Shown piece after piece: positions 12,377 through 52,309 of a stretch of DNA of 64,000 nucleotides. Position 1 is the first letter of the stretch. Each line of letters begins with the position of its first letter. The position numbers and the translations under genes were made by a program. The notes under the pieces were generated by a model, which ran no database searches, was not told the DNA's origin, and worked only from the letters and a program-made list of their open reading frames with translations. The DNA is taken from positions 2,096 through 66,095 of the forward strand of contig CAZOGI010000008.1 in the NCBI GenBank assembly GCA_964579435.1, in the 5' to 3' direction. This DNA is from an uncultured Planctomycetales bacterium. Lineage in GTDB: Bacteria; Omnitrophota; Gorgyraeia; Gygaellales; Profunditerraquicolaceae.

Positions 12377-13438
12377 ATGCGCTCGCTCCTGACCGTCCTT
12401 CTGTCGCTGGTGGTGACCGCCGCCGCAATGCCGCTGTGCATCGTCCTTTCCCGGAAGCTCAAGATCCTCGACCATCCCGGCGGCCGCAAAACCCATCTGC
12501 AACCGACCCCGCTTCTGGGCGGACTGGCGGTCTACCTGGGATTCCTGACCGGGTATCTCCTGAACACCCATGAGACCGGGTTCCTGACGCCGCTCTTTTG
12601 GAGCGCAACCCTGGTCTTTGCGGTGAGCCTCTTCAACGACATCCGGCCGCTCTCGGCGGCAGCGCGCCTGCTCGCGCAGCTCCTGGCAACCGGAATCCTC
12701 ATCGCCAACGGCTGGCGCATCAGCTTCCTGCCCGAGGTCTGGTGGGGCGACGCCTTCGAGATGCTCGTCACCGGCGTCTGGGTAACGGGCATCACCAACG
12801 CCTTTAACTACCTCGACGGAGTGGATGCCCTGGCGGCGGGATCCGCGGGGCTCAATTTTTTCGTCTTCTCGGTCATCCTCTTTTCCTCGGGACAGATCGG
12901 CCTGGCGGTCTTCGCGGTCTCGGCGATGGCTGCCTGCCTGGGCTTTATCCCTTTCAACGTGAGCCGCCGCTTCAAGATCTTCCTCGGGGATGCCGGAAGC
13001 ACCTTTCTAGGGTTCACCCTCGCGGGGATCTCCCTTGCCGGGAACTGGGCCCAGGCCAACGCAGTCAGGATCGTGATCCCGATACTGATCCTGGGGGTGC
13101 CTATCTTCGACATGACCTTTACCACGGTCATGCGCATCAAAGAGGGGAAGGTCCGCTCTCTCGGCGAATGGCTCGAATACGCGGGCCGCGACCACTTCCA
13201 CCATTACCTGCTCTCCCTGGGCCTGAAGCCCCTGCAAACGGTCCTCTTCATCTTCTTCGTCACGCTCTCCCTGGGAATAAGCGCGATCATGGTCTCCAAC
13301 GACCGGCCGTTCGAAGCGTTCTTGAGCGTCTCACAGGGCATCATCATCTTCAGCATAATCGGAACCCTGATCACCCTCGGGCAACAGCAGATCCGCCGGC
13401 AGGAGAAAGAATCGAAAACCATTGACAAATGCATTTAA
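12377..13438 (+). CDS. Glycosyltransferase family 4, polyprenyl-phosphate sugar-1-phosphate transferase (WecA/MraY superfamily)
   Basis: Multi-TM protein with ITNAFNYLDGVDALAAG and FLGDAGSTFLGF, which are MraY/WecA hallmark motifs. Confidence 0.75.
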   Translation: MRSLLTVLLSLVVTAAAMPLCIVLSRKLKILDHPGGRKTHLQPTPLLGGLAVYLGFLTGYLLNTHETGFLTPLFWSATLVFAVSLFNDIRPLSAAARLLAQLLATGILIANGWRISFLPEVWWGDAFEMLVTGVWVTGITNAFNYLDGVDALAAGSAGLNFFVFSVILFSSGQIGLAVFAVSAMAACLGFIPFNVSRRFKIFLGDAGSTFLGFTLAGISLAGNWAQANAVRIVIPILILGVPIFDMTFTTVMRIKEGKVRSLGEWLEYAGRDHFHHYLLSLGLKPLQTVLFIFFVTLSLGISAIMVSNDRPFEAFLSVSQGIIIFSIIGTLITLGQQQIRRQEKESKTIDKCI

Positions 13439-13457
13439 CATCTTACAATAAATAGAG

Positions 13458-14375
13458 ATGTATACTGCTTACTGGGGACTGACAGAAAAACCGTTCGAGA
13501 ACACCCCGGACCCGAAATTCCTCTTTCATTCGCAGCAGCACAACGAAGCGCTGGCTCGACTGCTTTATGTTGTGCATGAGCGAAAGGGCGCGGTGCTCTT
13601 AACAGGGGAGTATGGGAGCGGAAAAACTTTACTTACCCGTGTCCTCTGGCAAGAGCTGCAGCAGGAAAATATCTACCAGTCGGCCTTCATCCTCAATCCC
13701 CGTTTAAACGGCGTCGAATTCATCCAGGAGATCGTCAACCAGCTCAACGGCGCCGAAACCACCCCCAGCAAGATCAATCTTTTCCACAGCCTCCACAAGA
13801 TCCTCTATGCCAACTACAACGCCAAGAAACACACCATCATCATTATCGACGAAGCGCAGGCGATCAAGGATCCGGACATTTTCGAAGAGCTGCGGCTGCT
13901 CCTCAACTTCCAGCTCGACAACACCTTCCTGCTGACCATCGTGCTCATCGGACAGCCGGAGCTCAAGACCACCGTCAGGCAGCTACCCCAGCTCATGCAA
14001 CGGCTGGCCGTGCGCTACCACCTCAAAGCGCTCAACAAAAGCGAAGCGATCGATTACGTCCTGCACCGCCTGAAGGTATCCGGGGCGAAAGAGGAGATCT
14101 TCACCGCCGAAGCGCTCGCCGCGGTCTACAACTGCGCCGGCGGCATCCCGCGCAAAATCAACAATATCTGCGATTTGGCGCTGCTGGTGGCGTTCGGCAA
14201 CGGCCAGAAATCGATCGACGCGCGCGTCATCAACGAAGTCACCAAGGACCTGGAGATCGAGCTTCCCGAGAACACCCAGCACGTCGATTCCATCCAGAAA
14301 GAGCGCACCCCGCCGAGAGAACAGGAAAAGACCGTGCAAGAGGATGTTTCGCGGTCCGGGCCTTCTTCAAAATAA
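13458..14375 (+). CDS. ExeA/GspA-like AAA ATPase, PEP-CTERM/exosortase-locus type
   Basis: Walker A (LTGEYGSGKT) and Walker B (IIIIDEAQ). Overall layout matches ExeA-like ATPases associated with polysaccharide and exosortase loci. Confidence 0.6.
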   Translation: MYTAYWGLTEKPFENTPDPKFLFHSQQHNEALARLLYVVHERKGAVLLTGEYGSGKTLLTRVLWQELQQENIYQSAFILNPRLNGVEFIQEIVNQLNGAETTPSKINLFHSLHKILYANYNAKKHTIIIIDEAQAIKDPDIFEELRLLLNFQLDNTFLLTIVLIGQPELKTTVRQLPQLMQRLAVRYHLKALNKSEAIDYVLHRLKVSGAKEEIFTAEALAAVYNCAGGIPRKINNICDLALLVAFGNGQKSIDARVINEVTKDLEIELPENTQHVDSIQKERTPPREQEKTVQEDVSRSGPSSK

Positions 14376-14382
14376 CGTCCCC

Positions 14383-15411
14383 ATGGTCGACCTCTCCAAG
14401 ATACTCAGCAAAGCAAACCGGTTACCGCAACGCGGCGCCGAACCCACCCCGGCAACGGCGGGTGAGCCGAGAACAATCGGGGAGATCATCACCCGCGCCG
14501 CGCCGCAGCAGCTCAACAAGATTGACAACCCGGAGTCGGTCGCCCTTTACCAACAGGCATGCGCCGCCGCCGAGGCGATCTACGCCTCTCCCGCGCGGCA
14601 GGGCGCAGGAAACTTCCTGCCTTCGCTGACCGAGCTCATCTCGACCCTGGCGACGCGCCTCATGCAGGAAGACCGGACCCTGCTGAAACGCTGCCTGAGC
14701 GATTACGCACAGAACGGCTATTACCTGCCGCACCATGCAGTCAACGTCTGCCTCCTTTGCCTGGAACTGGGCATCGGCATGGGATATGACCGCGCCAAGC
14801 TCACCGAACTGGGAACCGGGGCGTTCCTGCACGATATCGGGCTCGTGCAGTTCGCCGAGCTCATTACCAAACCGGTCGTCTTCGACGAAAAAGAGCACGC
14901 GGTCATCCGCCAGCACTCGGCAACCGGCGTCTCGACGCTGCAATCGCTTTCCCCCGAGGTTCCGGCAGCCATCCTCTCGATCGTCGCCCAGGCGCACGAA
15001 CGCAAAGACGGCTCCGGCTATCCGGCGGGATTAAAGGACTCCGCGATCACCGAGTACGCCCAGATCGTCGGCATCGCCGACGTCTACGAAGGCTTCATCC
15101 ACACACGGCCCTACCGACCCAAGATCAATCCCCTGGAGGCGATCAAATTCATCCTCGACAACAAAAAAACCTTCGAACCGGCGATCGTCAAGGTGCTCCT
15201 GCACCGCATCGGCATCTATCCGCTCGGCTCGGTGGTGCGCCTCAACACCAAGGAGATCGGGGTCGTCACCGACAATAATTACGATTCTCCGCTGAGCCCG
15301 GTGGTCAGCGTCCTCTCCGACACCCAGCAAAAAGAGCTCCCGCAGCCCAAGATACTCAACCTGGCGGAAACCAGGGGGGTCATCTATATAGAGGATTGCC
15401 TCAACGCATGA
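14383..15411 (+). CDS. HD-GYP domain protein (c-di-GMP phosphodiesterase family)
   Basis: HD motif (HHAVNV...FLHDIGLV), HSATG, and AQAHERKDGSGYP (the GYP signature). An alternative upstream ATG at 14344 overlaps the preceding gene. Confidence 0.7.
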   Translation: MVDLSKILSKANRLPQRGAEPTPATAGEPRTIGEIITRAAPQQLNKIDNPESVALYQQACAAAEAIYASPARQGAGNFLPSLTELISTLATRLMQEDRTLLKRCLSDYAQNGYYLPHHAVNVCLLCLELGIGMGYDRAKLTELGTGAFLHDIGLVQFAELITKPVVFDEKEHAVIRQHSATGVSTLQSLSPEVPAAILSIVAQAHERKDGSGYPAGLKDSAITEYAQIVGIADVYEGFIHTRPYRPKINPLEAIKFILDNKKTFEPAIVKVLLHRIGIYPLGSVVRLNTKEIGVVTDNNYDSPLSPVVSVLSDTQQKELPQPKILNLAETRGVIYIEDCLNA

Positions 15412-16466
15412 AGACCTCTCCCCTGGAACAGACCGCTTTGCGCTGCCTGCCTGCGCTCCTCTGCGCGGCGCTGCTGCTGAGCATACCCCCGCAGCAGGGC
15501 TGCGCCGAAGAAGACACGCCCAAGCAGAGACAGGCGCAATTGCACTATATGATGGGCAACCGCCTGGTCCAGGAGAAACGCTACAAGGAAGCGCAGGAAG
15601 AATACCGTCTCGCGTTGAACCTCATCGAAGAGATCGACGATCTCTTGGAGCTGCCCTATGGCAGCTCCCTGGACCCGCAAACTTCGGTTGAAACGGATAT
15701 ACAACCGGCCGCCGCAGCCCCCGGGACGCATGCCTGGTCCCCGGTGCTCTCCGCGCCGCCCCCGTCGTCTTTGCCGCCGCTGCGGCCGCAAACACAAGAA
15801 CCCGCCGCTCTTTCGAGCGGAGACGCTGCTTTCGCGCCGCAGGCACCACCCGCCCCGGCAGCCGAGCGGCGCGCCGCGACCACGACCGGAATCTATCTCA
15901 TCGACGAAGGCGACGTCCTGCAGCTGTCCGTCTGGCAGAATCCGGACCTGGAGCAGGAAGTGATCGTGCGCCCCGACGGGAAAATATCCTGCGCCCTCAT
16001 CGGCGATGTCGATGCCTCGGGCCTGACGATCCCGGAGCTGGACGGGGCCATTACCGAACGCCTCAAGGAATACATACGCTCCCCCGAAGTCTCGCTCTCG
16101 CTCAAGAAATTTTCCGGCAAAAAAGTAATCGTCCTGGGAGAGGTCAAAGAGCCGGGCATTTATTCGGTTACCGGGGCGAAAACGATCCTGGAGGCGATCG
16201 GCCTTGCCGGAGGGCTGACCCAGGACTCGGTGGCATCGAGTGTCATCGTCATAAGCGGGGGCTTAAGCAACCCCAAACCCCGCCGGATCAACCTGACCAA
16301 AGCCCTGCACAAGGGGGACATGTCCAACAATCCGCCGCTACAGGCAGAAGATATCATCTTCGTCCCCAAGAAATTCATCGCCGATATCAATTACATCCTC
16401 ATGCAGGTGCTGGAGCCGCTTACCAAGGGGGCCCTCAACGTCAAGGAGCTCGAACGCATCTTTTAG
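15408..16466 (+). CDS. Polysaccharide export protein (Wza-like; Poly_export plus SLBB domains)
   Basis: IDEGDVLQLSVWQNPDLEQEVIVRPDGKISCALIGDVDASGLT matches the Poly_export motif (GDvL.i.vw...l...v.v..dG.i..P.iG.v.v.Glt). SLBB repeats lie downstream. N-terminal signal/lipoprotein-like region. ATGA overlap with the HD-GYP gene. Confidence 0.7.
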   Translation: MKTSPLEQTALRCLPALLCAALLLSIPPQQGCAEEDTPKQRQAQLHYMMGNRLVQEKRYKEAQEEYRLALNLIEEIDDLLELPYGSSLDPQTSVETDIQPAAAAPGTHAWSPVLSAPPPSSLPPLRPQTQEPAALSSGDAAFAPQAPPAPAAERRAATTTGIYLIDEGDVLQLSVWQNPDLEQEVIVRPDGKISCALIGDVDASGLTIPELDGAITERLKEYIRSPEVSLSLKKFSGKKVIVLGEVKEPGIYSVTGAKTILEAIGLAGGLTQDSVASSVIVISGGLSNPKPRRINLTKALHKGDMSNNPPLQAEDIIFVPKKFIADINYILMQVLEPLTKGALNVKELERIF

Positions 16467-23915: not shown

Positions 23916-23956
23916 ATTATATAATTATTGATTATGGTAGATAAAGATGCTATACT
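23907..23956 (+). promoter_or_regulatory. Palindromic operator (CTACCATAA-N16-TTATGGTAG) overlapping a TTGATT-17-TGcTATACT promoter upstream of the first pseudopilin gene
   Basis: Perfect 9-bp inverted repeat at 23907-23915 and 23932-23940. The -35 TTGATT (23928-33) lies inside the palindrome. An extended -10 TGCTATACT sits at 23948-23956. A near-identical module recurs at 26009-26057. Confidence 0.45.
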
Positions 23957-23973
23957 TTTTACAGAGGCTGCCC

Positions 23974-24378
23974 ATGCGTACATCCTTTGACCGGGGAGTA
24001 ACCTTAGTTGAAGTCATGCTGGCCGCGGGGATACTGATCTTTGCCCTGAGCGGGATGCTGGCGCTTTTCATACATTGCATGAACCTTAACCAAGCGTCCC
24101 GCCATACCGCAGAGGCAAGCAGCCATGCCCAGATGATCGTTGAACAGATCCGGACAACGAATTTCGGGGCGATCGAGGGCAATATCACGCAGTGGAATCT
24201 CACGACCAGCCAGTTGCAGTCGTCTCCGTACAGCCTCAATACGCTCACCAACGAAACAGCCATTACCAACGTCACCATCTCCGGGAATCCCCTCGGGATC
24301 TCGGTAACGGTGGCCTGGGACGAAAGGGGGAGCCGGTCGATGTCCACGCGCGTGGACACGCTCCTGACCGACTACTGA
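23974..24378 (+). CDS. Prepilin-type N-terminal cleavage/methylation domain protein (pseudopilin / minor pilin)
   Basis: MRTSFDRG|VTLVEVMLAAGILIF has a short basic leader, a glycine at the cleavage site, glutamate at +5 and a hydrophobic helix. The ORF-track start at 23947 falls inside the promoter, so 23974 is preferred. Confidence 0.6.
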   Translation: MRTSFDRGVTLVEVMLAAGILIFALSGMLALFIHCMNLNQASRHTAEASSHAQMIVEQIRTTNFGAIEGNITQWNLTTSQLQSSPYSLNTLTNETAITNVTISGNPLGISVTVAWDERGSRSMSTRVDTLLTDY

Positions 24379-24380
24379 GT

Positions 24381-24845
24381 ATGCGCGGATTCACCCTGTT
24401 GGAGCTGCTGGCCGGAGCGCTCATCACCACCATCCTGGCGGCGGCGGTCTTTTTGGTGCTGTCTTCCGGCGACGCGACGTTCCGCATGGACGCAGGCTGG
24501 GTTGACCTGCAGCAGGAAGCGCGCCGCGGCATAAACGCGATGGTGTCGCCCCTGCGAGAAGCATCCGGCGTGGTCATCACCAGCGACGATGCCAGTTCCG
24601 ACCGGATCACCTTCAACACGACCGTGCAGAGCGGGATCGTGATCTACCGCGACAGCGACGCGCGCCAGATCATACGCACCGCCGCGACAGGAACGCCCCA
24701 GGTGCTGGCAAACGACAATGATGCCCTTAATATAACGCTCTCCGGCGACGTCCTGCGGATCGCGGTGCAGCACTCCCGGTCCGTTTACTCCCGGCCGACG
24801 CTCACCTTTAACCTGACAGAAAGGATCGTGCTGAGAAATGAATAA
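24381..24845 (+). CDS. Prepilin-type N-terminal domain protein (pseudopilin / minor pilin)
   Basis: MRG|FTLLELLAGALITTIL is the canonical GFTLLE class III signal peptide. It begins 3 nt after the upstream stop. Confidence 0.6.
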   Translation: MRGFTLLELLAGALITTILAAAVFLVLSSGDATFRMDAGWVDLQQEARRGINAMVSPLREASGVVITSDDASSDRITFNTTVQSGIVIYRDSDARQIIRTAATGTPQVLANDNDALNITLSGDVLRIAVQHSRSVYSRPTLTFNLTERIVLRNE

Positions 24846-25863
24846 CCGGGGATTTGCGCTCATCTTCGGATTCACGATCATCGCGGTGCTGGCGATCCTT
24901 GCCGGGGCAACGCTCTCGCGCAGCATAAGCGAGGTCCGCCTGACGCAGGAGTATACCGAATCCAACCAGGCGTTCTGGCTGGCGGAAGCCGGGCTCGCCC
25001 AGGTCCTGGCGACGCTGCGCAATGACTCTTCCGTCACCTCGATCAGCGCGACCCCGTTGGGCAGCGGCGGCTATTCGGCGGCGATCTCCGGAAGCGGCAC
25101 CTCGCGGACCGTTATCGGCTCGGGCTTCTTGCCGTACACAAGCCCCCGCCTCACGCGTTCGATCCAGGTCACGATGGTGCGCCATGTCCCGCCTGATTTT
25201 TACGACAATGCCATCTATTCCGCGGAGAACGTGGACCTCAAAGGCACCACCTATATAGTCAACGGGAACGTGACCTATGCCACCAACATCACCAATACCG
25301 GCAACATAAACGGCACCATTGAACAGGATGCCTCGATCTCGCCGCTGGCGCGGCTGGACTTCCAGCAGTTGCGCACGATCAGCGTCGCGCAGGGGAATCT
25401 GTATGTCGTCAGCGGCAGCAAACTCGTCAACCAGGCAACCGGCCTGGAAGGATTCCCCGCATCGTTCTGGTACTCGGCGCCGACGAACTCCTCCGACCCC
25501 ACGACCGGCACGCCCAACATCGTCTATATCGAGGGGGACCTGACGCTCAACGGCAACATCGGGACCATCGGCGGATTCTTCGTCGTCGCCGGAGACGTCA
25601 TCAACACCCCGGATATCACCCAGGATGCCACGATCAACGGCATCGGGATGGTCGAAGGGGCGATATACACGCGCGGTGAGTTCCGGATAAACGGGGGAGG
25701 AGGCAACCTCAACGTCAACGGCGGGGTCTGGTCCGGGGACCAGGCACGGCTCAACGGCAACGCCCAGGTCGACTACAACGCAACGATCATGGGAGCGATC
25801 GAAGGGCTCGGCCTCTCCGGAACGTTCCAGATATCCAATTGGCACGACCTGGCCAATAACTAA
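24838..25863 (+). CDS. PilX N-terminal domain-like pilus assembly protein with N/G/T-rich repetitive C-terminal region
   Basis: N-terminus NRGFALIFGFTIIAVLAIL...AFWLAEAGL follows the PilX_N pattern (hydrophobic helix plus an AEAGL-like motif). The C-terminal 200 aa are rich in N, G and T, resembling a beta-solenoid (NGNVTYATNITNTGNINGT...). Confidence 0.5.
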   Translation: MNNRGFALIFGFTIIAVLAILAGATLSRSISEVRLTQEYTESNQAFWLAEAGLAQVLATLRNDSSVTSISATPLGSGGYSAAISGSGTSRTVIGSGFLPYTSPRLTRSIQVTMVRHVPPDFYDNAIYSAENVDLKGTTYIVNGNVTYATNITNTGNINGTIEQDASISPLARLDFQQLRTISVAQGNLYVVSGSKLVNQATGLEGFPASFWYSAPTNSSDPTTGTPNIVYIEGDLTLNGNIGTIGGFFVVAGDVINTPDITQDATINGIGMVEGAIYTRGEFRINGGGGNLNVNGGVWSGDQARLNGNAQVDYNATIMGAIEGLGLSGTFQISNWHDLANN

Positions 25864-25905
25864 GACACCAGACACCCGAGACAAGGCACCAGAGACCAGG
25901 GGCAA
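25864..25905 (+). repeat. CA-rich tandem heptamer array (ACCAGAC-like units), member of a dispersed intergenic repeat family
   Basis: GACACCAGACACCCGAGACAAGGCACCAGAGACCAGGGG starts one nt after the stop codon. It has the same 7-nt periodicity as the other family members. Confidence 0.5.
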
Positions 25906-26008
25906 CAAAAAATTATAAGAAGACAGGCTATACCCCTCTTCTCATTCCACACTTCAAATCCCCCCTAAAGCTTCTGTTTTAGCGCTGCTGATCAGCACCT
26001 CATTTATT

Positions 26009-26057
26009 CTACCAAAAATTCTTATTTATTTAATTTTGGTAGTTTTTATGCTATACT
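26009..26057 (+). promoter_or_regulatory. Second copy of palindromic operator (CTACCAAAA-N16-TTTTGGTAG) with TGcTATACT extended -10, upstream of the second pseudopilin sub-operon
   Basis: 9-bp inverted repeat at 26009-26017 and 26034-26042 with a 16-nt AT-rich loop. ATGCTATACTT at 26048-26058 is identical to the string at 23947-23957. GGAGGAGG RBS, ATG at 26082. Confidence 0.45.
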
Positions 26058-26081
26058 TGTTTTGGGAGGAGGCGACGGGGT

Positions 26082-26495
26082 ATGCGCAGATACCTAAAGA
26101 AAAAGGGCACAACCCTGGTTGAACTGCTGATCGCCAGCATGATCCTGGTGGTCGCCTTCGGCGGACTCTGCAGCAGCCTGGCGGCAACGGTCTTTATAAT
26201 CGATACCGCCCGGGACGAAACACAGGCAATTACCGACCTGCGCAACATCATGGAACGCATCCGCTCGACGCCGCTCTCTAATATCGTCTCGCTGTTTCCC
26301 CATAACGTCGCAAACGGCCCCGGCAGCAACCCGTACAGCGCCATCGTCGGAGGCTTTCAGCTTACCGCGGAGGCCATCACCATATCGTACCAGGATCCCA
26401 ACAGCGATCCCCTAAAGATCTGCGCCCAAGTACAGTGGCAGGATCGCCGGGGCACGCTCAGGAGCATGCTCCTGAGTACCGCAAAAACGCGCTGA
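26082..26495 (+). CDS. Prepilin-type N-terminal domain protein (pseudopilin)
   Basis: MRRYLKKKG|TTLVELLIASMILVVAF. Confidence 0.6.
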   Translation: MRRYLKKKGTTLVELLIASMILVVAFGGLCSSLAATVFIIDTARDETQAITDLRNIMERIRSTPLSNIVSLFPHNVANGPGSNPYSAIVGGFQLTAEAITISYQDPNSDPLKICAQVQWQDRRGTLRSMLLSTAKTR

Positions 26496-26497
26496 CC

Positions 26498-27097
26498 ATG
26501 AAAAACTCACCGGTTAACAGAGATGCTCGTCGCGGGTTCTCGCTTTTCGAAACGCTCCTCGCCTGCACTCTCACCTGCATCATCGCCGCTGCCGTGTACC
26601 AGATGCAGATCGCCGGATGCACCGGCATCGAACACGGCAAAATCAGGGCGGACCTGCAGGCACAGGCGCGCAATACCCTGGCGCGGATACAGGCGGAGCT
26701 CTCGGCTGCCACGCGCGCGCAGGCAAACACTCCCCCCAACATTTCGATTCCCTCGGCCCCCGGCAACACGACGATCACCTTCTATCTGCCGACCTACACC
26801 TTTTCGGGCAACCGGATTACCGGAGTGGTCATGGATACCGACGGCGCGATAGTCTGGGACGTGAATAATCCGGTGAGCTTCGAATACGATCAGTCTAACC
26901 GTCAAATACTACGCCGCCAAGGAGCCTCTGCCAGCGTCATCGCAACGCACGTCTCAGGCGTCACCTTCACGGACAGCGTCATCGATCCGGCCCTGGCGCT
27001 GGATGAAGTCCGGCTTGAGGTACAATTAGAGATGCAGACAACCCAAGGCAGAACGGTCCAGATCAGCCTGCCCTGCCTTATCCGGCTGCGCAACTAA
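26498..27097 (+). CDS. Prepilin-type N-terminal domain protein (pseudopilin)
   Basis: MKNSPVNRDARRG|FSLFETLLACTLTCIIAAAV. The ATG lies 3 nt after the upstream stop. Confidence 0.6.
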   Translation: MKNSPVNRDARRGFSLFETLLACTLTCIIAAAVYQMQIAGCTGIEHGKIRADLQAQARNTLARIQAELSAATRAQANTPPNISIPSAPGNTTITFYLPTYTFSGNRITGVVMDTDGAIVWDVNNPVSFEYDQSNRQILRRQGASASVIATHVSGVTFTDSVIDPALALDEVRLEVQLEMQTTQGRTVQISLPCLIRLRN

Positions 27098-27112
27098 AAC
27101 AGGGAGGCACCC

Positions 27113-28747
27113 ATGCGCCCGGTCACGCGCGGACCAAACAGACGAAAAGGACAAGCCCTGATCGCGGCATACCTGGCGATAACCGCGCTGCTTGCCCTGG
27201 CGGCGACGATCTCGACGAAAGCCATCTCCGAACGCAACACCGCAGCCCATCGGCAGATGCACTCCCAGATCTTTTATCTCGCCGAAGGGGGGATGGAAGA
27301 GACCCTGGCGGCATTCGCCTCGCAGATCGCTGATTACCAGATCAGCCCGGAGACCGACACCTTCAGCTGGAACTCGACCTTCGCTCCCTTCTCCAACGCC
27401 AGCGTCCGTTCCGAAATAACGCCGATAGACTCCGCAAGCAGCATGATCAGCGAATCCGACACCAATATCCTGGTGCGCCGCTATCTCATCAACTCAACCG
27501 TCACTCATCCCGACAACCCGGCACTGACCATCACCATCCACCAGATATTCGTCCGGCGCCTCATCCCAACGTTCCAGCATTCGGTCTTCTATGACCAGGA
27601 CCTGGAGATGCTCCCCGGACCGAACATGACTCTCACCGGACGCATCCATTCAAACCAGGACATATACCTCGATTCCCATAATGCCTTTACCATCAATTCG
27701 ACGTATCTTCACTCTGCAGGCAACATCTACAACAACCGCAAAGACGACTCAAGCGTGCTGGGAGGGGATGTTTACATACGCATCAACGCAACGAGCCCAA
27801 TACAGTGGGCGGCCATGAACAACCTCGATTGCGACAACGCCAACTGGACCAGCGCCGCCCTCGCGCGCTGGAACTCAACCGTCATGAGCAGCGTCCACGG
27901 CGTGCGGCGCATCAGCGCACCATCGGTTGCCTCCGTGCAACCGGGCGGTTACTACGATACCGCGGCAAACGTCAAGATCATCGACGATAACATCTATCGG
28001 GGCGGGGTACTCCTGAGCGAAGGAACCGATTATCCCGCCGGCACCATCACCGCCAACAATACCTTCTACAATAACCGCGAAGGCCGCAGGGTGCGTATGA
28101 CTACTATCGACCTGCGCAAGCTCGCCGGCTTCAGCAGCGCCAACGCTACCGCAGCCGATTTTCCCAACAACCTGCCGTCAAACGGACTGCTCTTCGCCAG
28201 CCGCAGCAGCGTACCGACCGGAGAGCAGGCGGGGATACGGCTGGCCAACGGCTCCGAGATACACCGCAGCGGCGGCCTCACCGTCGTCACCAACGACCCC
28301 CTCTATATCCAAGGGGATTACAACACCGTCAATGAGAAACCCACCAGCGTCATCTGCGATGCGGTCAACCTCCTCTCCAACTCCTGGAGCGACACCGCAA
28401 GCACCCTGACCCTGACCAGCCGTATCCCCTCGGCAACCAGCGTCATCTGTGCCTTTATCGCCGGAGTCGACGAAACGACTTCCGGCCAATATAACGGGGG
28501 ACTGGAGAATTACCCTCGCCTGCACGAAAAATGGGACAACCGGCAGTTGGCGATCAAAGGTTCTTTCGTCAGCCTGTGGGAAAGCCAGGTCGCAACCGGC
28601 AGCTGGGTCTATGGCGGCACCCAGTATACCGCACCGACGCGAAGCTGGCAGTATAATACCGCCTTCAACAACCCCGCCAATCTTCCGCCGTTCACCCCCT
28701 GGGCGGTGGAGACCCGACGCATCGCCTGGTGGGTAGAGAATTCTTAA
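27113..28747 (+). CDS. Large PilX_N-like pilus-associated protein (544 aa), N/T/S-rich; candidate tip/adhesin component
   Basis: N-terminal hydrophobic helix (ALIAAYLAITALLALAATI) is followed by QIFYLAEGGMEETLA, the PilX_N AEAGL-like motif. The remainder is rich in N, T and S with many N-x-T/S sequons. Confidence 0.5.
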   Translation: MRPVTRGPNRRKGQALIAAYLAITALLALAATISTKAISERNTAAHRQMHSQIFYLAEGGMEETLAAFASQIADYQISPETDTFSWNSTFAPFSNASVRSEITPIDSASSMISESDTNILVRRYLINSTVTHPDNPALTITIHQIFVRRLIPTFQHSVFYDQDLEMLPGPNMTLTGRIHSNQDIYLDSHNAFTINSTYLHSAGNIYNNRKDDSSVLGGDVYIRINATSPIQWAAMNNLDCDNANWTSAALARWNSTVMSSVHGVRRISAPSVASVQPGGYYDTAANVKIIDDNIYRGGVLLSEGTDYPAGTITANNTFYNNREGRRVRMTTIDLRKLAGFSSANATAADFPNNLPSNGLLFASRSSVPTGEQAGIRLANGSEIHRSGGLTVVTNDPLYIQGDYNTVNEKPTSVICDAVNLLSNSWSDTASTLTLTSRIPSATSVICAFIAGVDETTSGQYNGGLENYPRLHEKWDNRQLAIKGSFVSLWESQVATGSWVYGGTQYTAPTRSWQYNTAFNNPANLPPFTPWAVETRRIAWWVENS

Positions 28748-30741: not shown

Positions 30742-31205
30742 AAAAACCGGTTGAGTTGCTGCGCAAGGCCCGCATCGCCGACGTTAAAGATATCCAGACC
30801 CTCATCCACTCTTTCGCCCAGGCGGACCTGATGCTGCCGCGCTCTCTCAACGAGCTCTTCGACCATCTGCGCGACTACTGGGTCTGCGAGCGCGCCGGCA
30901 AGATCATCGGCTGCTGCGCGCTGCACGTCTGCTGGCAGGACCTGGCCGAGATCAAATCACTCGCCGTCGAACGCAGGCTCCAATGCAAAGGCATCGGCAC
31001 CCGGTTGGTGGAGGCCTGCATGAACGAAGCAAAAACGATGGGGGCCAAGCGCGTCTTCGTCCTGACCTACCAGCCCGATTTCTTCAAACGGTTCGGGTTC
31101 CGCAGGGTTACCCACGCCTCGCTGCCCCATAAGGTGTGGGCCGAATGCATCAATTGCCCGAAATTCCCCGATTGCCGGGAAATCGCACTGTTAAAAACCT
31201 TGTAA
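30738..31205 (+). CDS. GNAT family N-acetyltransferase (short ArgA-like with C-terminal Cys motif)
   Basis: GNAT motif A (LAVERRLQCKGIGTRLVE) and C-terminal KVWAECINCPKFPDCRE. ATGA overlap with glgC. Confidence 0.7.
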   Translation: MKKPVELLRKARIADVKDIQTLIHSFAQADLMLPRSLNELFDHLRDYWVCERAGKIIGCCALHVCWQDLAEIKSLAVERRLQCKGIGTRLVEACMNEAKTMGAKRVFVLTYQPDFFKRFGFRRVTHASLPHKVWAECINCPKFPDCREIALLKTL

Positions 31206-31292
31206 AAAAACCGATTTGTGGTAAGATATTTTTTTTGTACGGCAGCCGCCGGTCGGGGGCTGCGGATAACCACCATCCGTAAGGAGGCAGGA

Positions 31293-32444
31293 ATGGATTA
31301 TCTGTTTTCGGAAGAACAAAAAATGATCCGCGACCTCGCGCACAAGATTGCCGAGGAGAAGATACGTCCGGTCGCCGCCAAGTACGACCAGAGCGAGGAA
31401 TACCCCTGGGAGGTCATCAAGGTCATCGCCGAATCGGACCTGTTCGGGCTCTTCATCCCGGAAGAGTACGGCGGAATGGGGGTCAACGTACTGAACCTGT
31501 GTTTGGCGACCGAGGAATTTTCGCGCGCCTGCGGCGGTATCGCGGTCTGCTATGCCGCCTCGGCCCTGGGGACGTTCCCGATCGTGCTCTTCGGCAACGA
31601 CGCCCAGAAGAAAAAGTACCTGCCGGCCCTGGCCAAGGGAACGAAGGTCGCCGCCTTCGGCATAACCGAGCCGGAAGCCGGCTCCGATGCCTCGGCGATC
31701 AAGACGACCGCGCGCAAAGAGGGCGACCACTACGTCCTCAATGGTCTGAAACATTTCATCACCAACGGCGGCGACGCGGAAACCTACGTCGTCATCGCCA
31801 TGACCAACAAAACAAAAGGGGCGCGCGGGGCATCGGCGTTCATCGTCGAAAAAGGCACCCCGGGCTTTACCTTCGGCAAGAAGGAGGACAAGTTCGGCAT
31901 CCGCGCCTCCTCGACCCGGGAGCTCATCTTCACCGACTGCAAGATCCCCAAGGAAAATTTGTTGGCGAAGGAAGGCATGGGCTTTATCGTCACGATGCGC
32001 ACTTTCGACATGTCGCGTCCGGGCGTTGCGGCGCAGGCGCTGGGGATCGCCCAGGGAGCGCTGGAGCTGGCGGTCAAATACGCCAAGGAGCGCCACCAGT
32101 TCGGCAAATCGATCTCCAGCTTCCAGGGAATCCAATGGATGCTCGCCGACATGGCGACCGAGATCGAGGCGGCGCGCGCGCTGGTCTATGCAACCGCCCG
32201 GGCGGTCGATGCCGGCTCCAAAGACGTCTCCAAGGAATCCGCCATGGCCAAGATGTACGCCTCGGACGTGGCGATGAAGGTGACGGTAGAGGCCCTGCAG
32301 ATCTTCGGCGGGTACGGATACATGAAGGAGTATCCGATCGAGAAGTACATGCGCGACGCCAAGATCACCCAGATCTACGAAGGCACCAACCAGATCCAGC
32401 GCAACATCATCGCGCTGCAGCTGATCAAGGAGCTGGCGAAATAG
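31293..32444 (+). CDS. Acyl-CoA dehydrogenase (short-chain/butyryl-CoA dehydrogenase-like)
   Basis: Length (383 aa) and motifs (GITEPEAGSDA, catalytic region YEGTNQIQRNIIA) fit the family. AAGGAGG RBS lies 6 nt upstream of the ATG. Confidence 0.85.
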   Translation: MDYLFSEEQKMIRDLAHKIAEEKIRPVAAKYDQSEEYPWEVIKVIAESDLFGLFIPEEYGGMGVNVLNLCLATEEFSRACGGIAVCYAASALGTFPIVLFGNDAQKKKYLPALAKGTKVAAFGITEPEAGSDASAIKTTARKEGDHYVLNGLKHFITNGGDAETYVVIAMTNKTKGARGASAFIVEKGTPGFTFGKKEDKFGIRASSTRELIFTDCKIPKENLLAKEGMGFIVTMRTFDMSRPGVAAQALGIAQGALELAVKYAKERHQFGKSISSFQGIQWMLADMATEIEAARALVYATARAVDAGSKDVSKESAMAKMYASDVAMKVTVEALQIFGGYGYMKEYPIEKYMRDAKITQIYEGTNQIQRNIIALQLIKELAK

Positions 32445-32455
32445 GTCACGACCTC

Positions 32456-32506
32456 CAAACACACAAGACACAAGACACCAGACACAAGACACATGACACA
32501 AGAAAA
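32456..32506 (+). repeat. CA-rich tandem heptamer array (ACAAGAC ACAAGAC ACCAGAC ACAAGAC ACATGAC ACAAG)
   Basis: About six clean 7-nt units sit 12 nt after the acyl-CoA dehydrogenase stop and 57 nt before etfB. Both flanking genes are on the same strand. Confidence 0.5.
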
Positions 32507-32562
32507 GCGCATCGAACGCTGAGAGACGAAAACAGGAGAAGACGCGTCCCTCCCTCAATCCC

Positions 32563-33345
32563 ATGAACATACTCGTCTGCATCAAACAGGTTCCCGAAAC
32601 AACCGACGTGCGGATCAACCCCGAAACTAATACCCTGATCCGCGAAGGCGTCAAATCGATCATCAACCCCTTCGACCTGTACGCGATCGAAGAGGGGGTG
32701 CGCCTTAAGGAAAAGAACACCGGCACCGTCACGGTCATCACCATGGGGCCACCGCAGGCCGAAGGCGCGCTGCGAGAGGCCATTTCCATGGGAGCCGACG
32801 CCGGGATTCTGGTTTGCGACCGCGCCTTTGCCGGCAGCGACACCTGGGCAACCAGCTATACCCTGGCCGGGGCGATACGCAAGATCGGCTCTTTCGACCT
32901 GATCATCTGCGGCAAACAGGCATCCGACGGAGATACGGCGCAGGTCGGGCCGGGTATCGCCACCCACCTGGACATCCCGCAGGTCACCTACGTCAAGAAG
33001 ATCGAGGAAGTAAAAAACGGAAAAATGCGCGTGGAGCGGATGATGGAAGAGGGTTTCGAGATCATCGAGCTGCCGCTGCCGGGGCTCATCACCGTCGTCA
33101 AGGAGATCAACGAACCCCGCATCCCTTCGCTCAAAGGGATGATGCGCGCAAAATCGGCCCCGATAACCACCTGGACGCAGAAAGACCTGAACCTGGACCC
33201 CAACTCCATCGGATTGTGCGGCTCGCCGACCCAGGTCGTCAAGATCTTCTCGCCCCCGCAGCGCAGCGGCGGAGAGATCCTCAAAGGCGAACCTGCCGAG
33301 GTCGCCTCAAGACTGGTCCAGCTGCTCAAAGACGAGGTCCATTGA
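32563..33345 (+). CDS. etfB: Electron transfer flavoprotein beta subunit
   Basis: MNILVCIKQVPETTDVRINPETNTLIREGV...INPFDLYAIEEGVRLKE is the EtfB consensus. Confidence 0.85.
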   Translation: MNILVCIKQVPETTDVRINPETNTLIREGVKSIINPFDLYAIEEGVRLKEKNTGTVTVITMGPPQAEGALREAISMGADAGILVCDRAFAGSDTWATSYTLAGAIRKIGSFDLIICGKQASDGDTAQVGPGIATHLDIPQVTYVKKIEEVKNGKMRVERMMEEGFEIIELPLPGLITVVKEINEPRIPSLKGMMRAKSAPITTWTQKDLNLDPNSIGLCGSPTQVVKIFSPPQRSGGEILKGEPAEVASRLVQLLKDEVH

Positions 33346-33348
33346 TCC

Positions 33349-34551
33349 ATGCCCATACAGATCCTGGTTGAAAAATGCACCGGCTGCACCCTCTGCGTCA
33401 AGGCCTGCCCGTTCGACGCCATCCGCATGATGGACAAAAAGGCGCAGATCGATTTCAACAAATGCACCCTCTGCGGCGCATGCGTCTCGGCCTGTAAATT
33501 CAAAGCGGTGCTCCTGGAAAAAACGCCGCTCAAATGCGACCTGCCCGGGATAAAAGACTATGCGGGGATATGGGTCTTTATCGAACAGAAGAACGGGAAG
33601 GTCCAGTCGGTCGCGTATGAGCTCCTGGGCAAGGCGCGGGAGCTGGCGGAAAAACGCGGCTGTTCGGTCGCCGCGGTAGTGATCGGCAACCAGATGGACG
33701 AATCGCTGGATGAGATCATCTGGCACGGGGCGGACACCGTCTATCTGGTCCAGGCCCCGGAGATCGCCCATTTCCAGGACGAGCCCTACACCAACATCCT
33801 CTGCGGCCTCATTCGCACATACAAGCCCGAGATACTCCTCTGCGGCGCGACCTCGATCGGCCGCTCGCTCATCGCACGGGTCGCCATCAAGGTGAACGCC
33901 GGGCTCACGGCGGACTGCACCGGCCTGGACATCGACCCGCAGAAGAAGATACTCCTGCAGACGCGCCCTGCCTTCGGCGGCAACATCATGGCGACGATCA
34001 TCAGTCCGAACCACCGCCCGCAGATGGCGACCGTGCGCCACAAGGTTTTCCAGCCGCTGGCGCCGGACAAAAAACGCAAAGGAACCGTCATCCGCGAGAC
34101 ATTCGGCGCCGAGGCGCTGGCTTCGCGCACCCGGCTTCTGGATATCGTCGAAGAAGTCGAGAACCTTGTCAATATCGCGGAGGCTGACATCATCGTCTCC
34201 GGAGGAAGGGGCATGGGAGGAGGGGAACAGTTCAAGCTGCTGGAAGAGCTGGCCCACACCCTCGGCGCCGCGATCGGCGCTTCGCGCGCGGCAGTCGATT
34301 CCGGCTGGATGCCGTACTCGCACCAGGTCGGCCAGACCGGGCGCACCGTCGCGCCGAAGCTGTATATCGCCTGCGGGATCTCCGGGCAGATCCAGCACTT
34401 CGTCGGCATGTCTTCCTCCAAGATCATCGTCGCCATCAATAAAGATCCCGATGCGCCCATTTTCAAATTCGCCACCTACGGCATCGTCGGAGATCTCTTC
34501 CAGGTGATCCCGGAACTGACCAAGCGTTTCAAGGAGACCCTTAAACGCTAA
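33349..34551 (+). CDS. etfA: Electron transfer flavoprotein alpha subunit with N-terminal 2x[4Fe-4S] ferredoxin domain
   Basis: The N-terminal region has two CxxCxxCxxxCP motifs (CTGCTLCVKACP and CTLCGACVSACKF). EtfA FAD-binding motifs (GISGQIQHFVGM, AINKDPDAPIF) lie C-terminally. Confidence 0.85.
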   Translation: MPIQILVEKCTGCTLCVKACPFDAIRMMDKKAQIDFNKCTLCGACVSACKFKAVLLEKTPLKCDLPGIKDYAGIWVFIEQKNGKVQSVAYELLGKARELAEKRGCSVAAVVIGNQMDESLDEIIWHGADTVYLVQAPEIAHFQDEPYTNILCGLIRTYKPEILLCGATSIGRSLIARVAIKVNAGLTADCTGLDIDPQKKILLQTRPAFGGNIMATIISPNHRPQMATVRHKVFQPLAPDKKRKGTVIRETFGAEALASRTRLLDIVEEVENLVNIAEADIIVSGGRGMGGGEQFKLLEELAHTLGAAIGASRAAVDSGWMPYSHQVGQTGRTVAPKLYIACGISGQIQHFVGMSSSKIIVAINKDPDAPIFKFATYGIVGDLFQVIPELTKRFKETLKR

Positions 34552-34569
34552 CCGAGGAGACAGCGCCCT

Positions 34570-34938
34570 ATGGATGCGTCGGATAAACGCAAGTACCCGC
34601 GGCTCTTCTTCAACGTCAAGATCGATTACCAGAAGGTCGACGCCAACGCCCTGCCCCTGGCCAACACCTACAGCAAGAACATCGGGGGAGGCGGCATCTG
34701 CATGTTCTCGCTGGAGAAATTGGAGACGGGCACCGGGATCAAGCTGACCTTCACGCTGCCCGACCATAACAAGACCGTCGAAGCGCTCGGCAAGGTCGTC
34801 TGGGTTGACCGCTTCAGCATCGAGGACCGCCAGAACGAGACCGCCTACGAAGCCGGCATCGAGTTCGTTGATATCAACGACAAAGACCGCGCCCTCATCC
34901 AAACCTATGTCCTGGGGATCATGAAACAACCCTCCTAA
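34570..34938 (+). CDS. PilZ domain protein (putative c-di-GMP receptor)
   Basis: RKYPRLFF (the RxxxR-like motif) and NIGGGGICM (DxSxxG-like) are the PilZ signature pair. Single-domain protein of 122 aa. Confidence 0.6.
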   Translation: MDASDKRKYPRLFFNVKIDYQKVDANALPLANTYSKNIGGGGICMFSLEKLETGTGIKLTFTLPDHNKTVEALGKVVWVDRFSIEDRQNETAYEAGIEFVDINDKDRALIQTYVLGIMKQPS

Positions 34939-38680: not shown

Positions 38681-39898
38681 TTAAGAATTAAAGGCGAGCA
38701 GACAGCAGGTGGTATTCTTGCCGCTGTGTTTGGCTTGATAGAGCGTTTTATCGGCAAAACTGAGGAGTTCCGCAGGGGTTTTGCCGTCCTCAGGATAAGT
38801 ACTCACCCCCAGGCTGGCGGTCAGTTTCTGATGCGGCATGATCTCTTCGTGGATAAACGCATGCTTGCCGATATCCTCCCGCAGGCGCTCCGCGATCAGG
38901 AATGCCTCGCGCTTGTCGGTCTGCGGCAGGATGACCATGAATTCCTCGCCGCCGTAGCGGGAGACGAAATCCATCTTGCGGGAATGGCTCTTGAGCAACT
39001 GGGCCAGGTCTTTGAGGATCGTATCGCCGGCCTGATGCCCGAACGTGTCGTTATACACCTTAAAATCGTCTATATCCAGCGCGATCAGGCTGACCGGGAC
39101 TTTAACCGCCTTTGCCTTCTCCAGCTCCTCCTGCAGGGTAAACTGGAAATAGCCGTGGTTCCACAGCCCGGTGAGGGAATCCTGGTGGGTGCGGATAACC
39201 GTTTTTTCGTACAGATGCGAATTCTCGATCGCCAGGCCCGCCTGGTTGGCGAGCATGATGAGCATGCGCAGGTCGCTGTTGGTGATCGATTTTTTGGTGA
39301 TGAAGTTGTCGGCCAAAATGATGCCGTTGACCTTGTCCTTGGCTTTCAGCGGCACGACCGCCAGCTCCTCGGCCTTGAGCAGCTGGATGACCGGGTCGTT
39401 GGCGTAACGGCCGATCGCCTCTTTATTCAGATGCAGCGGCATCCCGTCCAGCACGCAAAGGGACAGGAGGCTCTCGGCGTTCTCCTTCAGGGAAACCTTT
39501 ACGTGCTTGACCTGACGGTTGAAAGAGGTCTCGGGCGCTCCGTTCAGAGCCTTGTAGGCGCCGATAAGCTCCTCGAGGCTTTTGCGCTCCTGCTCGATCT
39601 GCTTCCAGATGCGGTTCGCCTCATCGCCGCTTTCGGGACCGATAGCCATCTTGCCTTCGATCAAACCTTCTTTTTCGTTAACCAAAAAGAGGATGGAGCG
39701 GTTGAAGCCGAGGCCGATGTGTGCGGTGACGCCGGTGAGGATGATATAGAGGATTTCATCGAGCTTGAGGGTGGTACGCATGGCGTTGGAGACCTCGTAG
39801 AGAACCGTCAACTCGGTCTTCGTGCGCTCAAGCTCTGCTTTTATCCGATCCAGCTCCTGCTTGAACTCTTCAGGAACAGGGTGTTTTTCGATGGTCAT
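38681..39898 (-). CDS. Diguanylate cyclase (GGDEF) with N-terminal GAF-like sensory domain(s)
   Basis: The minus-strand ORF translation contains RYGGEEFMVILPQTDKREA (the GGEEF active site), the inhibitory-site-like LDIDDFKVYND, and upstream GAF-like segments. Confidence 0.8.
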   Translation of the reverse strand: MTIEKHPVPEEFKQELDRIKAELERTKTELTVLYEVSNAMRTTLKLDEILYIILTGVTAHIGLGFNRSILFLVNEKEGLIEGKMAIGPESGDEANRIWKQIEQERKSLEELIGAYKALNGAPETSFNRQVKHVKVSLKENAESLLSLCVLDGMPLHLNKEAIGRYANDPVIQLLKAEELAVVPLKAKDKVNGIILADNFITKKSITNSDLRMLIMLANQAGLAIENSHLYEKTVIRTHQDSLTGLWNHGYFQFTLQEELEKAKAVKVPVSLIALDIDDFKVYNDTFGHQAGDTILKDLAQLLKSHSRKMDFVSRYGGEEFMVILPQTDKREAFLIAERLREDIGKHAFIHEEIMPHQKLTASLGVSTYPEDGKTPAELLSFADKTLYQAKHSGKNTTCCLLAFNS

Positions 39899-40039: not shown

Positions 40040-40068
40040 TTGCACTAACCGATTGATTATGCTATAGT
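40040..40068 (+). promoter_or_regulatory. Sigma70-like promoter TTGCAC-17-TGcTATAGT; ATG at 40075 at predicted +1 (leaderless)
   Basis: TTGCAC 40040-45, TATAGT 40063-68 with an upstream TG, ATG at 40075. Confidence 0.45.
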
Positions 40069-40074
40069 TAACGC

Positions 40075-51952: not shown

Positions 51953-52309
51953 ATGAAGATCTCCTGGGAAGAAAAAAAAGGAATCGCGCTCTGTAGCCTG
52001 AAAGGGGAGCTGACCATCGATACGGCAGACCAGCTCAAGAAGGAGCTTTCGGCCCTGAGCGCGCCGCCGCGCAGCGTGATCATCAACTGCACGGGCCTGA
52101 CGTACCTCGACAGCACCGGGATCGCCACGATCCTGGGCCTCGCCAAAACCCTGGAGGAGGCGGCAGCAAAGATGTTCCTGTGCTGCCTTTCCCCGAAACT
52201 GCGCACGGTACTGAGAATCACCAGGCTGGACTCGGTGCTGGCGATCTGTGACTCGCAACAGGAGGCGTTGCAACAATGCCTGAACCCGCCGCAACGGCAG
52301 CAGGAGTGA
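51953..52309 (+). CDS. STAS domain protein (anti-sigma factor antagonist, SpoIIAA/RsbV-like)
   Basis: INCTGLTYLDSTGIATILGLAK contains the conserved phosphorylatable-serine-region motif (DSxG). Confidence 0.7.
   Translation: MKISWEEKKGIALCSLKGELTIDTADQLKKELSALSAPPRSVIINCTGLTYLDSTGIATILGLAKTLEEAAAKMFLCCLSPKLRTVLRITRLDSVLAICDSQQEALQQCLNPPQRQQE

Follow-up and report, generated by a model that had tools for sequence, protein, structure and literature searches.

In a 64,000-nucleotide stretch of contig CAZOGI010000008.1 from an uncultured member of the Omnitrophota (hereafter the window), six genes for prepilin-type proteins at positions 23974-28747, here named g1 to g6, make up a pair of paralogous cassettes of three genes, cassette A being g1-g3 and cassette B g4-g6, each specifying an I-like, a J-like and a K-like subunit after GspI, GspJ and GspK of the type II secretion system (T2SS). 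The cassettes have related small subunits, differing large subunits and separate evolutionary homes. We consider it likely, with a probability of about three in four, that they provide two alternative minor-pilin tip or priming complexes for one type IVa pilus (T4aP) machine. An earlier reading of the same DNA, hereafter the original prediction, had described a single set of six prepilin-type genes. The six genes are there, all intact and in the same orientation when their junctions are read directly in the sequence, but profile-profile comparison resolves them into two paralogous triplets rather than one set.

Two paralogous cassettes of minor-pilin genes

Protein families were built for each position from related loci and compared with hhalign. 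The families of g1 and g4 proved homologous over their full length (E = 3e-29), as did those of g2 and g5 (E = 8e-37), whereas homology between the g3 and g6 families was confined to the first 65 residues (E = 9e-17). It is because the small subunits are related throughout, and the large ones only in the N-terminal helix, that we read the locus as two cassettes. Gaps of 2 nt separate g1 from g2 and g4 from g5, g2 and g3 overlap by 8 nt, and a GGGAGG ribosome-binding site lies between the g5 stop (27097) and the g6 ATG (27113), while 218 bp separate g3 from g4.

Matches to N_methyl/TIGR02532 at or near threshold place the proteins in the type IV pilin/pseudopilin superfamily. The four short proteins carry the class III leaders that had been read in them, and the two large ones (341 and 544 residues) have the expected PilX_N/GspK-type N-termini, in which Glu+5 is missing (Table 1). 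These features extend across the families. Gly-1 occurs in 26-34 of the 34-36 members of each, and Glu+5 in 35 of 36 position-1 and all 35 position-2 members, while none of the 34 g3-family or 34 g6-family proteins has Glu+5, the residue at +5 being hydrophobic in every one of them. GspK, the tip subunit of the T2SS pseudopilus, is known to be marked by this lack of Glu+5.

Profile scans against Pfam and NCBIfam point to the same three subunit types. At the first position, g1 matched XpsI (GspI) with E = 4e-6 over residues 7-126 and PilV with E = 8e-4, g4 matched PilV with E = 5.7e-4, and among the 36 family members PilV was found in 29 and GspI in 22. At the second, g2 matched N_methyl and the prepilin domain as well as the N-termini of GspH and Verru_Chthon C, and g5 the N_methyl motif or prepilin domain; family-wide, Verru_Chthon C matched 24, ComGF 19 and GspJ 7 of 35 members. 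The putative J-type assignment of g2 and g5 thus draws on sub-threshold profile matches together with gene order. At the third position, g3 matched the N-terminus of GspK (E = 5e-7) and, weakly, PilX_N. No score reached the cut-offs for curated GspI, GspJ or GspK membership (TIGR01707, TIGR01711, NF037980): g3 attained 29 bits against 130 for GspK, and over its N-terminal 62 residues only, while g1 attained 27 bits against 150 for XpsI.

The remaining large subunit, g6, has no Pfam family but matched the NCBIfam profile HpsA (NF038301) with E = 7.8e-24 and 83 bits in three stretches, of which the best aligns residues 434-519 with profile positions 1330-1417 of 1503. The same profile matched all 34 members of the g6 family, the best with E = 9e-32. 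Since 83 bits lie well under the equivalog cut-off of 400, the match falls short of a full-length one, and g6 is homologous to part of HpsA rather than an HpsA equivalog.

Two candidate identities raised by the scans and the reading frames were discarded. A Pfam match of g3 to bactofilin (E = 0.0014) was taken as a generic signal of a Gly/Asn-rich beta-helix and not of a cytoskeletal protein. A 366-codon open reading frame (ORF) antisense to g3 (24808-25908, minus strand) was rejected as a gene, its GC content at third codon positions (GC3) being 0.53 against 0.83 for g3. It is one of several long minus-strand ORFs of 366-550 codons, with 31191-32843 and 33307-34929, that overlap real plus-strand genes; because their GC3 is 0.53-0.58 compared with about 0.8 in the sense genes, we judge these ORFs to be artefacts of the 60% GC content.

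Predicted folds of the large subunits

AlphaFold2 models of g3 and g6, both of high confidence, were built from 34-sequence alignments. The g3 model, with a predicted local distance difference test score (pLDDT) of 90.7, begins with a helix (residues 2-62) and a four-stranded sheet, continues as a solenoid from about 124 to 313 and closes with a strand at 331-337. In the g6 model (pLDDT 86.9) a helix (9-73) and a sheet are followed by a long domain rich in beta-structure, and residues 530-542 form the last strand. In Foldseek searches the g3 model matched DUF3494 ice-binding proteins (E = 6e-5 to 1e-3, probability 1.0), and the sole significant match of the g6 model among solved structures was ComZ (6qvi; E = 3e-7, probability 1.0, with low TM-scores).

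ComZ of Thermus thermophilus has a pilin domain nearest to GspK and a triangular solenoid nearest to an ice-binding protein, inserted between the penultimate and last strands, and its authors argue that the filament tip is the sole position it could occupy (PMC6561018). The predicted order of helix, four or five strands, solenoid and last strand, together with the ComZ and ice-binding-protein matches, is the reason we regard both g3 and g6 as fitting the ComZ architecture, with the insertion point of the solenoid deduced from strand order in the models. The GspK fold, with its alpha-helical insertion between strands 3 and 4, was not seen in either model. Searching PDB sequences with all four family profiles returned only N-terminal helix matches or noise.

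Two motifs are near-invariant in the g6 family, SGRIHSNxDIY at about 175-185 and YNGGLENYPRLHEKW at 460-474. The latter falls both in the HpsA-aligned stretch and in a loop of low confidence (pLDDT 59-65), one of few in the model; contact with a partner, metal binding and ligand binding are its candidate roles.

Distribution and genomic context in relatives

Homologues of both large subunits are numerous. For g6 there were 577 close homologues of about 540 residues at 47-59% identity, and for g3 393 homologues, the closest at 62%. Those that are named come from nearly nothing but metagenome-assembled genomes of Candidatus Omnitrophota, where they are annotated as hypothetical, and within each of the two families identity across the phylum is 46-62%. 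An exhaustive profile search enlarged the g6 family to 4260 representative clusters, with distant members on contigs labelled Planctomycetota, Brocadiia, Gemmatimonadota, Nitrospinota, Acidobacteriota, Bdellovibrionales and Deltaproteobacteria.

The two cassettes differ in where they are found. Homologues of cassette A, the closest included, usually lie inside a T4aP-like operon whose order is two MshEN-PilB genes, an HD-GYP regulator and PilC (a part often present), then major pilin, I, J, K, PilM, PilN, PilO, PilP and secretin. Among the 31 metagenome loci with enough downstream DNA, PilM occurs within 5 kb downstream in 20 and some machinery gene in 23. In cassette B, g4 and g5 homologues directly precede the g6 homologue in 46 of 47 loci. 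This cassette is usually alone: of the 25 loci flanked on each side by 5 kb or more, only three have machinery genes. At least two genomes show both arrangements on a single contig, with A in the operon and B alone (CAYRDK010000003.1 and the 221-kb JBAZMA010000002.1).

Cassette B is nonetheless met beside the machinery. In the single amplified genome AM-311-M22 (locus L067, JBHPGP010000020.1) the order is PilB, PilB, PilC, pilin, B, A, A', PilMNOP, secretin; in L072 cassette B takes the place of A within the pilus operon; and in L040 and L060 it adjoins PilB/PilC. Linkage to the core T4aP genes (PilB, PilC, PilMNOPQ) is thus present in the relatives, though not in this window. GspC, GspL and GspM genes were not called in the related operons, the one hint of them being that the PilM-like protein in L008 and L009 gave a weak T2SSL signal.

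Some loci carry more than two cassettes. The A' of L067 is divergent, and B, A and A' all stand between pilin and PilM, while in L051 no fewer than four I-J-K cassettes follow one another, with larger, divergent K-type proteins of about 390-550 residues. Rows of three or more cassettes suggest a modular repertoire of tip complexes.

The gene order of the window recurs around cassette B in one distant relative (L001), where opp, B, marC, glgC, GNAT, acyl-CoA dehydrogenase and ETF are followed by SMC and GGDEF genes, and cassette A is missing. Cassette B therefore occupies its ancestral stand-alone slot here. Because homologues of cassette A normally reside in the pilus operon, its detachment is most likely a lineage-specific rearrangement in which it moved from that operon to a place beside B; the alternative is that it is an extra copy.

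Machinery and other genes in the window

The original prediction had the set detached from pilus or T2SS machinery within the window, and the scans bear this out. Local profile scans of all six-frame ORFs gave no secretin, PilB/GspE, PilC/GspF, PilM-P or major pilin in the window, and 20 other window proteins scanned against Pfam included no prepilin peptidase or other pilus family, the remaining genes having been identified by eye or from conserved synteny. Nor do the genes belong to an ordinary GspG-K group of a T2SS operon continuing beyond the window, a reading that had been named as fatal to the proposal, given that 24 kb upstream and 35 kb downstream are free of machinery.

A polysaccharide-export-type cluster at 12377-16466 encodes a GT4 transferase resembling WecA, an AAA_22 ATPase resembling ExeA/GspA, an HD-GYP protein and, as exporter, a Poly_export/SLBB protein resembling Wza. 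Further upstream are genes for heptosyltransferases, for a DegT aminotransferase and for an enzyme of the radical SAM/SPASM type. The ATPase (13458-14375) was considered as a T2SS remnant and rejected in view of its neighbours, the GT4 transferase, the HD-GYP protein and the Wza-like exporter.

Genes related to cyclic di-GMP are found in the window as well, namely a PilZ gene (34570-34938), a GGDEF gene (38681-39898) and two HD-GYP genes (14344-15411 and 52276-53004). In two of the related operons (L005 and L006) the pilus ATPases carry MshEN domains and adjoin an HD-GYP response regulator. MshEN has been described as a cyclic di-GMP-binding domain, and control of piliation by this messenger is plausible. 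Two proteins had no Pfam family at E <= 0.001, those encoded at 9423-10952 (509 residues, with an apparent N-terminal signal peptide as judged by eye) and 40075-41862 (595 residues).

Promoter-like elements

An identical 11-mer, ATGCTATACTT, precedes both cassettes (Table 1). At up to one mismatch the window contains three matches to it, against 0.17 expected. A scan for sigma-70 promoters returned TTGATT-17-TATACT with TG at 23928-23956, overlapping the copy upstream of g1. In 20 of 39 related loci the g4 homologue is preceded by a similar TGnTAnAnT or TATACTTT element, of the TGnTATACTTT type, which is why we suggest that cassette B may be a transcription unit of its own. The ATGCTATACTT-type element may, on the other hand, simply be the -10 consensus of the phylum. 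The third match in the window, with one mismatch, is at 40059-40069, directly upstream of the 595-codon ORF mentioned above.

Table 1. Coordinates of the two cassettes and associated elements in the window (arrow, end of the prepilin leader).
Feature	Position	Strand	Description
Promoter-like ATGCTATACTT	23947-23957	+	Putative; extended -10-like TGCTATACT, 17 nt upstream of g1 start codon
g1	23974-24378	+	134 aa; cassette A position 1; GspI/PilV-type minor pilin (predicted); leader MRTSFDRG↓VTLVE
g2	24381-24845	+	154 aa; cassette A position 2; GspJ/PilW/ComGF-type minor pilin (putative); MRG↓FTLLE; C-terminal ...RLRNE
g3	24838-25863	+	341 aa; cassette A position 3; GspK/PilX-type large minor pilin with predicted ice-binding-protein-like beta-solenoid; MNNRG↓FALIF; no Glu+5
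Inter-cassette spacer	25864-26081	+	218 bp; 43% GC; second ATGCTATACTT copy (26048-26058) upstream of g4; ribosome-binding site GGGAGGAGG
g4	26082-26495	+	137 aa; cassette B position 1; GspI/PilV-type minor pilin (predicted); MRRYLKKKG↓TTLVE
g5	26498-27097	+	199 aa; cassette B position 2; GspJ/PilW/ComGF-type minor pilin (putative); ...ARRG↓FSLFE; C-terminal ...RLRN
g6	27113-28747	+	544 aa; cassette B position 3; ComZ/HpsA-like large tip pilin (predicted); ...RRKG↓QALIA; no Glu+5

Composition and origin

The large proteins are as rich in Asn, Thr and Gly as originally described. Asn makes up 8.8% of g3 and 8.1% of g6, compared with 2.9% elsewhere in the window; Thr and Ser each come to about 9-10% against 5.6-5.7%, and Gly to 12.3% of g3. 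Lys is scarce in the set, at 0-1.5% in five of the six proteins and 3.6% in g4 against 4.5% in the background. Sequons (N-x-S/T) number about 2 per 100 residues, a fivefold higher density than the 0.4 of the background. Their counts do not exceed those in composition-preserving shuffles (P = 0.15 for g6 and 0.45 for g3), so that composition accounts for their density and the glycosylated tip that had been envisaged finds no support. No oligosaccharyltransferase was found in the 64-kb window, nor any PMT-family gene next to its cassettes. PMT_2/PMT-family glycosyltransferase genes do lie near cassette B in L001 (4326-5471) and L003 (6387-8039), in unrelated contexts: within the opp operon in the former, and in the latter divergently adjacent with PIG-L and polysaccharide deacetylase genes.

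AT-rich intergenic DNA had been described as compatible with horizontal acquisition. Such regions exist, with 29% GC over the 58 bp upstream of g1 and 43% in the 218-bp spacer compared with an intergenic mean of 54%, and other intergenic regions of the window also go down to 42-46%. The coding sequences tell otherwise, the GC3 of the six genes (0.73-0.83) equalling the window background of 0.78 +/- 0.05. Because GC3 is typical, and because cassette B keeps the same opp...marC-glgC slot in a relative so distant that the g6 homologues share only 51% identity, we find no support for such an acquisition.

Proposed function and alternative explanations

Starting from gene content, prepilin motifs, cassette paralogy, predicted folds and the pilus-operon linkage of relatives, we infer a mechanism in which each cassette yields one priming complex. 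A prepilin peptidase encoded elsewhere would process the three subunits of a cassette, which, by analogy with GspI-J-K and PilV-W-X, may assemble into a staggered heterotrimer in the inner membrane. The heterotrimer would prime polymerisation of the major pilin and then remain as the tip of the filament. Topmost and first in it would be the K-type subunit (g3 or g6), in line with its missing Glu+5, and the solenoid of that subunit, presumably too large for the filament body, would cap or plug the tip and present a binding surface. The machine served would be the Omnitrophota T4aP-like system of MshEN-type PilB ATPases, PilC, PilMNOP and secretin, encoded outside the window. With two unrelated solenoids, the small ice-binding-protein-like one of g3 and the ComZ/HpsA-like one of g6, a single machine could thus be given two tips, with which it would probably attach the cell to surfaces, host cells or polysaccharides of different kinds.

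Several observations weigh against this proposal. The original prediction had likened the set to a priming or tip complex of the GspH-K or FimU-PilVWXY1E kind with an adhesin-like tip; the I-J-K/PilV-W-X core and the beta-solenoid large subunits were recovered, and the GspH/FimU and PilY1 components were not. A GspH/FimU-type fourth subunit was not found, the second pilins of related operons resembling the major pilin when read by eye, and no PilY1-like gene was called in the related pilus operons inspected, where no PilY1 profile was used. The family matches of the small subunits all fall under the curated cut-offs. Finally, the related operons showed no retraction ATPase, so that the machine could act as a secretion pseudopilus rather than as an extended pilus.

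This last point leads to the alternative we take most seriously, although we hold it to be unlikely: that the triplets are the pseudopilus tips of a type II secretion-like mode of the same machine, in which a short pseudopilus in the periplasm pushes polysaccharide or proteins through the secretin and no surface pilus is made. The lack of a PilT-like ATPase among the genes noted in related operons is in keeping with it, the best profile matches include GspI/XpsI, GspJ and GspK, and g6 is homologous to HpsA, polysaccharide export having been proposed for the cyanobacterial hpsA-D genes. The machinery to which the cassettes are linked is, however, PilM-N-O-P and secretin with major and auxiliary pilins, not GspC/L/M. 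The polysaccharide-export cluster in the window, which might also be cited in its favour, is about 10 kb from cassette B with pgk-tpiA-opp between, and is absent from the flanks of cassette B in L001 and L003. A large solenoid on the K subunit, moreover, suits an exposed tip, and both ComZ and cyanobacterial PilX are pilus-associated; T4aP are also reported to be expressed by V. archaeovorus LiM, the single species of Omnitrophota that has been enriched (PMC10066038). An improbable variant of the pilus proposal would make one cassette a ComZ-like DNA receptor on the tip of a competence pilus, serving DNA uptake rather than adhesion. Among solved structures, g6 does match this DNA-binding competence pilin best (PMC6561018), and one of the two cyanobacterial minor-pilin sets is needed for natural transformation. 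Yet ComZ binds DNA through lysines, whereas mature g3 and g6 are acidic (pI 4.5 and 5.6, the same as their family means) and hold just 2 and 7 Lys, a composition that would argue against a ComZ-like receptor and for adhesion. By sequence, too, g6 groups with HpsA and PilX_EPS, on the motility/EPS branch and not with the Com type, and comEA, comEC and dprA were not noticed beside the cassettes in the loci inspected.

That the block is a horizontally acquired island, inactive or orphaned in a genome without the cognate machinery, we regard as very improbable. The 64 kb without machinery, the AT-rich flanking intergenic regions and the position of cassette A outside its usual operon are what one would expect of it. 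They are set against a GC3 that lies within about one standard deviation of the window background for all six genes, and against the recurrence of cassette B in the same slot (opp...marC-glgC-GNAT-ACAD-ETF...SMC-GGDEF) in a distant relative. The six ORFs are intact and translationally coupled, with promoter-like and ribosome-binding sites, homologues in each family keep 46-62% identity throughout the phylum, and T4aP genes are reported in most Omnitrophota genomes (PMC10066038).

A broader version of the two-complex proposal can be offered with more hesitation, and we think it doubtful as a whole. In it the Omnitrophota would operate one T4aP machine with at least two interchangeable I-J-K cassettes that give distinct pili; the g6 tip, under separate control by a promoter of its own at a distance from the machinery, would recognise polysaccharide or host cells; the split between HpsA-like and small-solenoid PilX would be ancient; and the tips would be host-attachment determinants. 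If this were true, the split among PilX tips would be both ancient and widespread, spanning Omnitrophota, Planctomycetota and Cyanobacteria as well as contigs labelled Acidobacteriota, Nitrospinota, Gemmatimonadota, Bdellovibrionales and Deltaproteobacteria, and the host-attachment determinants of host-dependent nanobacteria would have been supplied. Omnitrophota are uncultured and for the most part ultra-small, and are regarded as attaching to other cells or preying on them. T4aP are the attachment device most widely cited for them (PMC10066038), and the papers on the phylum that we consulted contain no discussion of minor pilins. The two phylum-wide families of tip proteins, HpsA/ComZ-like and ice-binding-protein-like, are thus candidates for the molecules that contact host or substrate. 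The g6 family in particular, with thousands of members in several phyla and no Pfam model, deserves definition.

Comparison with known systems

Both cassettes are conserved across the Omnitrophota and belong to a known type of pilus-priming complex, not to a new system or mechanism. With T2SS GspI-GspJ-GspK and T4aP PilV-PilW-PilX they share the I, J, K gene order and the presence of Glu+5 in I and J but not in K. They depart from GspK in having the solenoid near the C-terminus of the K subunit, where GspK has its alpha-helical insertion (PMC6561018), and from the T2SS tip in that the machinery linked to them in relatives is PilMNOP and secretin with MshEN-type T2SSE ATPases and T2SSF, not GspC/L/M.

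The Verru_Chthon A-D proteins (TIGR02596-02600) of Verrucomicrobia/Chthoniobacter similarly form a small prepilin-type cassette with one very large member, presumably of four genes, as the family names A-D and the TIGRFAMs descriptions imply. Matches of g3 to Verru_Chthon A (E = 2e-5), of g1 to B (E = 0.002) and of the position-2 proteins to C concern the N-terminal helix only, at 17-23 bits against cut-offs of 51-332, and do not amount to membership; protein A is, besides, about 1300 residues long. ComZ, which with PilA2 forms a tip complex of the competence pilus of Thermus thermophilus (PDB 6QVI), resembles the large subunits in architecture, combining a GspK-like pilin domain with a large solenoid before the last strand, and g3 matches the same ice-binding-protein fold that the ComZ solenoid resembles. 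The likeness does not extend to sequence, where the g3 and g6 families have no detectable similarity to PDB chains beyond the N-terminal helix or noise, and gene order and partners differ.

The cyanobacterial minor pilins offer a parallel. Two core sets, Com and EPS, there prime distinct filaments; instead of PilY1 they have PilX subunits with ice-binding-like solenoids, and PilX_EPS is homologous to HpsA (preprint 10.64898/2026.02.12.705559). As we propose here, those sets (PilX-PilV-PilW-FimT; hpsA-D of Nostoc punctiforme) number two per type IV pilus machine; as here, they include a PilX-type subunit with a triangular ice-binding-protein-like solenoid, one lineage of which is homologous to HpsA, and they can be encoded away from the machinery, with no PilY1. 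The differences are that each set has three genes here, with no FimT/GspH-type member found, and four there; that g6 has about 540 residues against about 1500 positions in the HpsA profile; that hps-type glycosyltransferases are not adjacent to the cassettes in the window, L001 or L003; and that the present sets belong to another phylum, the Omnitrophota, in which cassette B habitually stands apart from the machinery. As to co-encoding of HpsA with pseudopilins (HpsB-D) and hps glycosyltransferases, what is seen around g6 is two preceding pseudopilins in 46 of 47 loci and, in L001 and L003, a nearby PMT-family gene. Because all 34 members of the g6 family match the HpsA profile, cassette B can be read as the counterpart of the cyanobacterial EPS-type set. 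Comparative evidence of this kind suggests that one machine with several tips is a general design, and would carry the two-tip model beyond the cyanobacteria.

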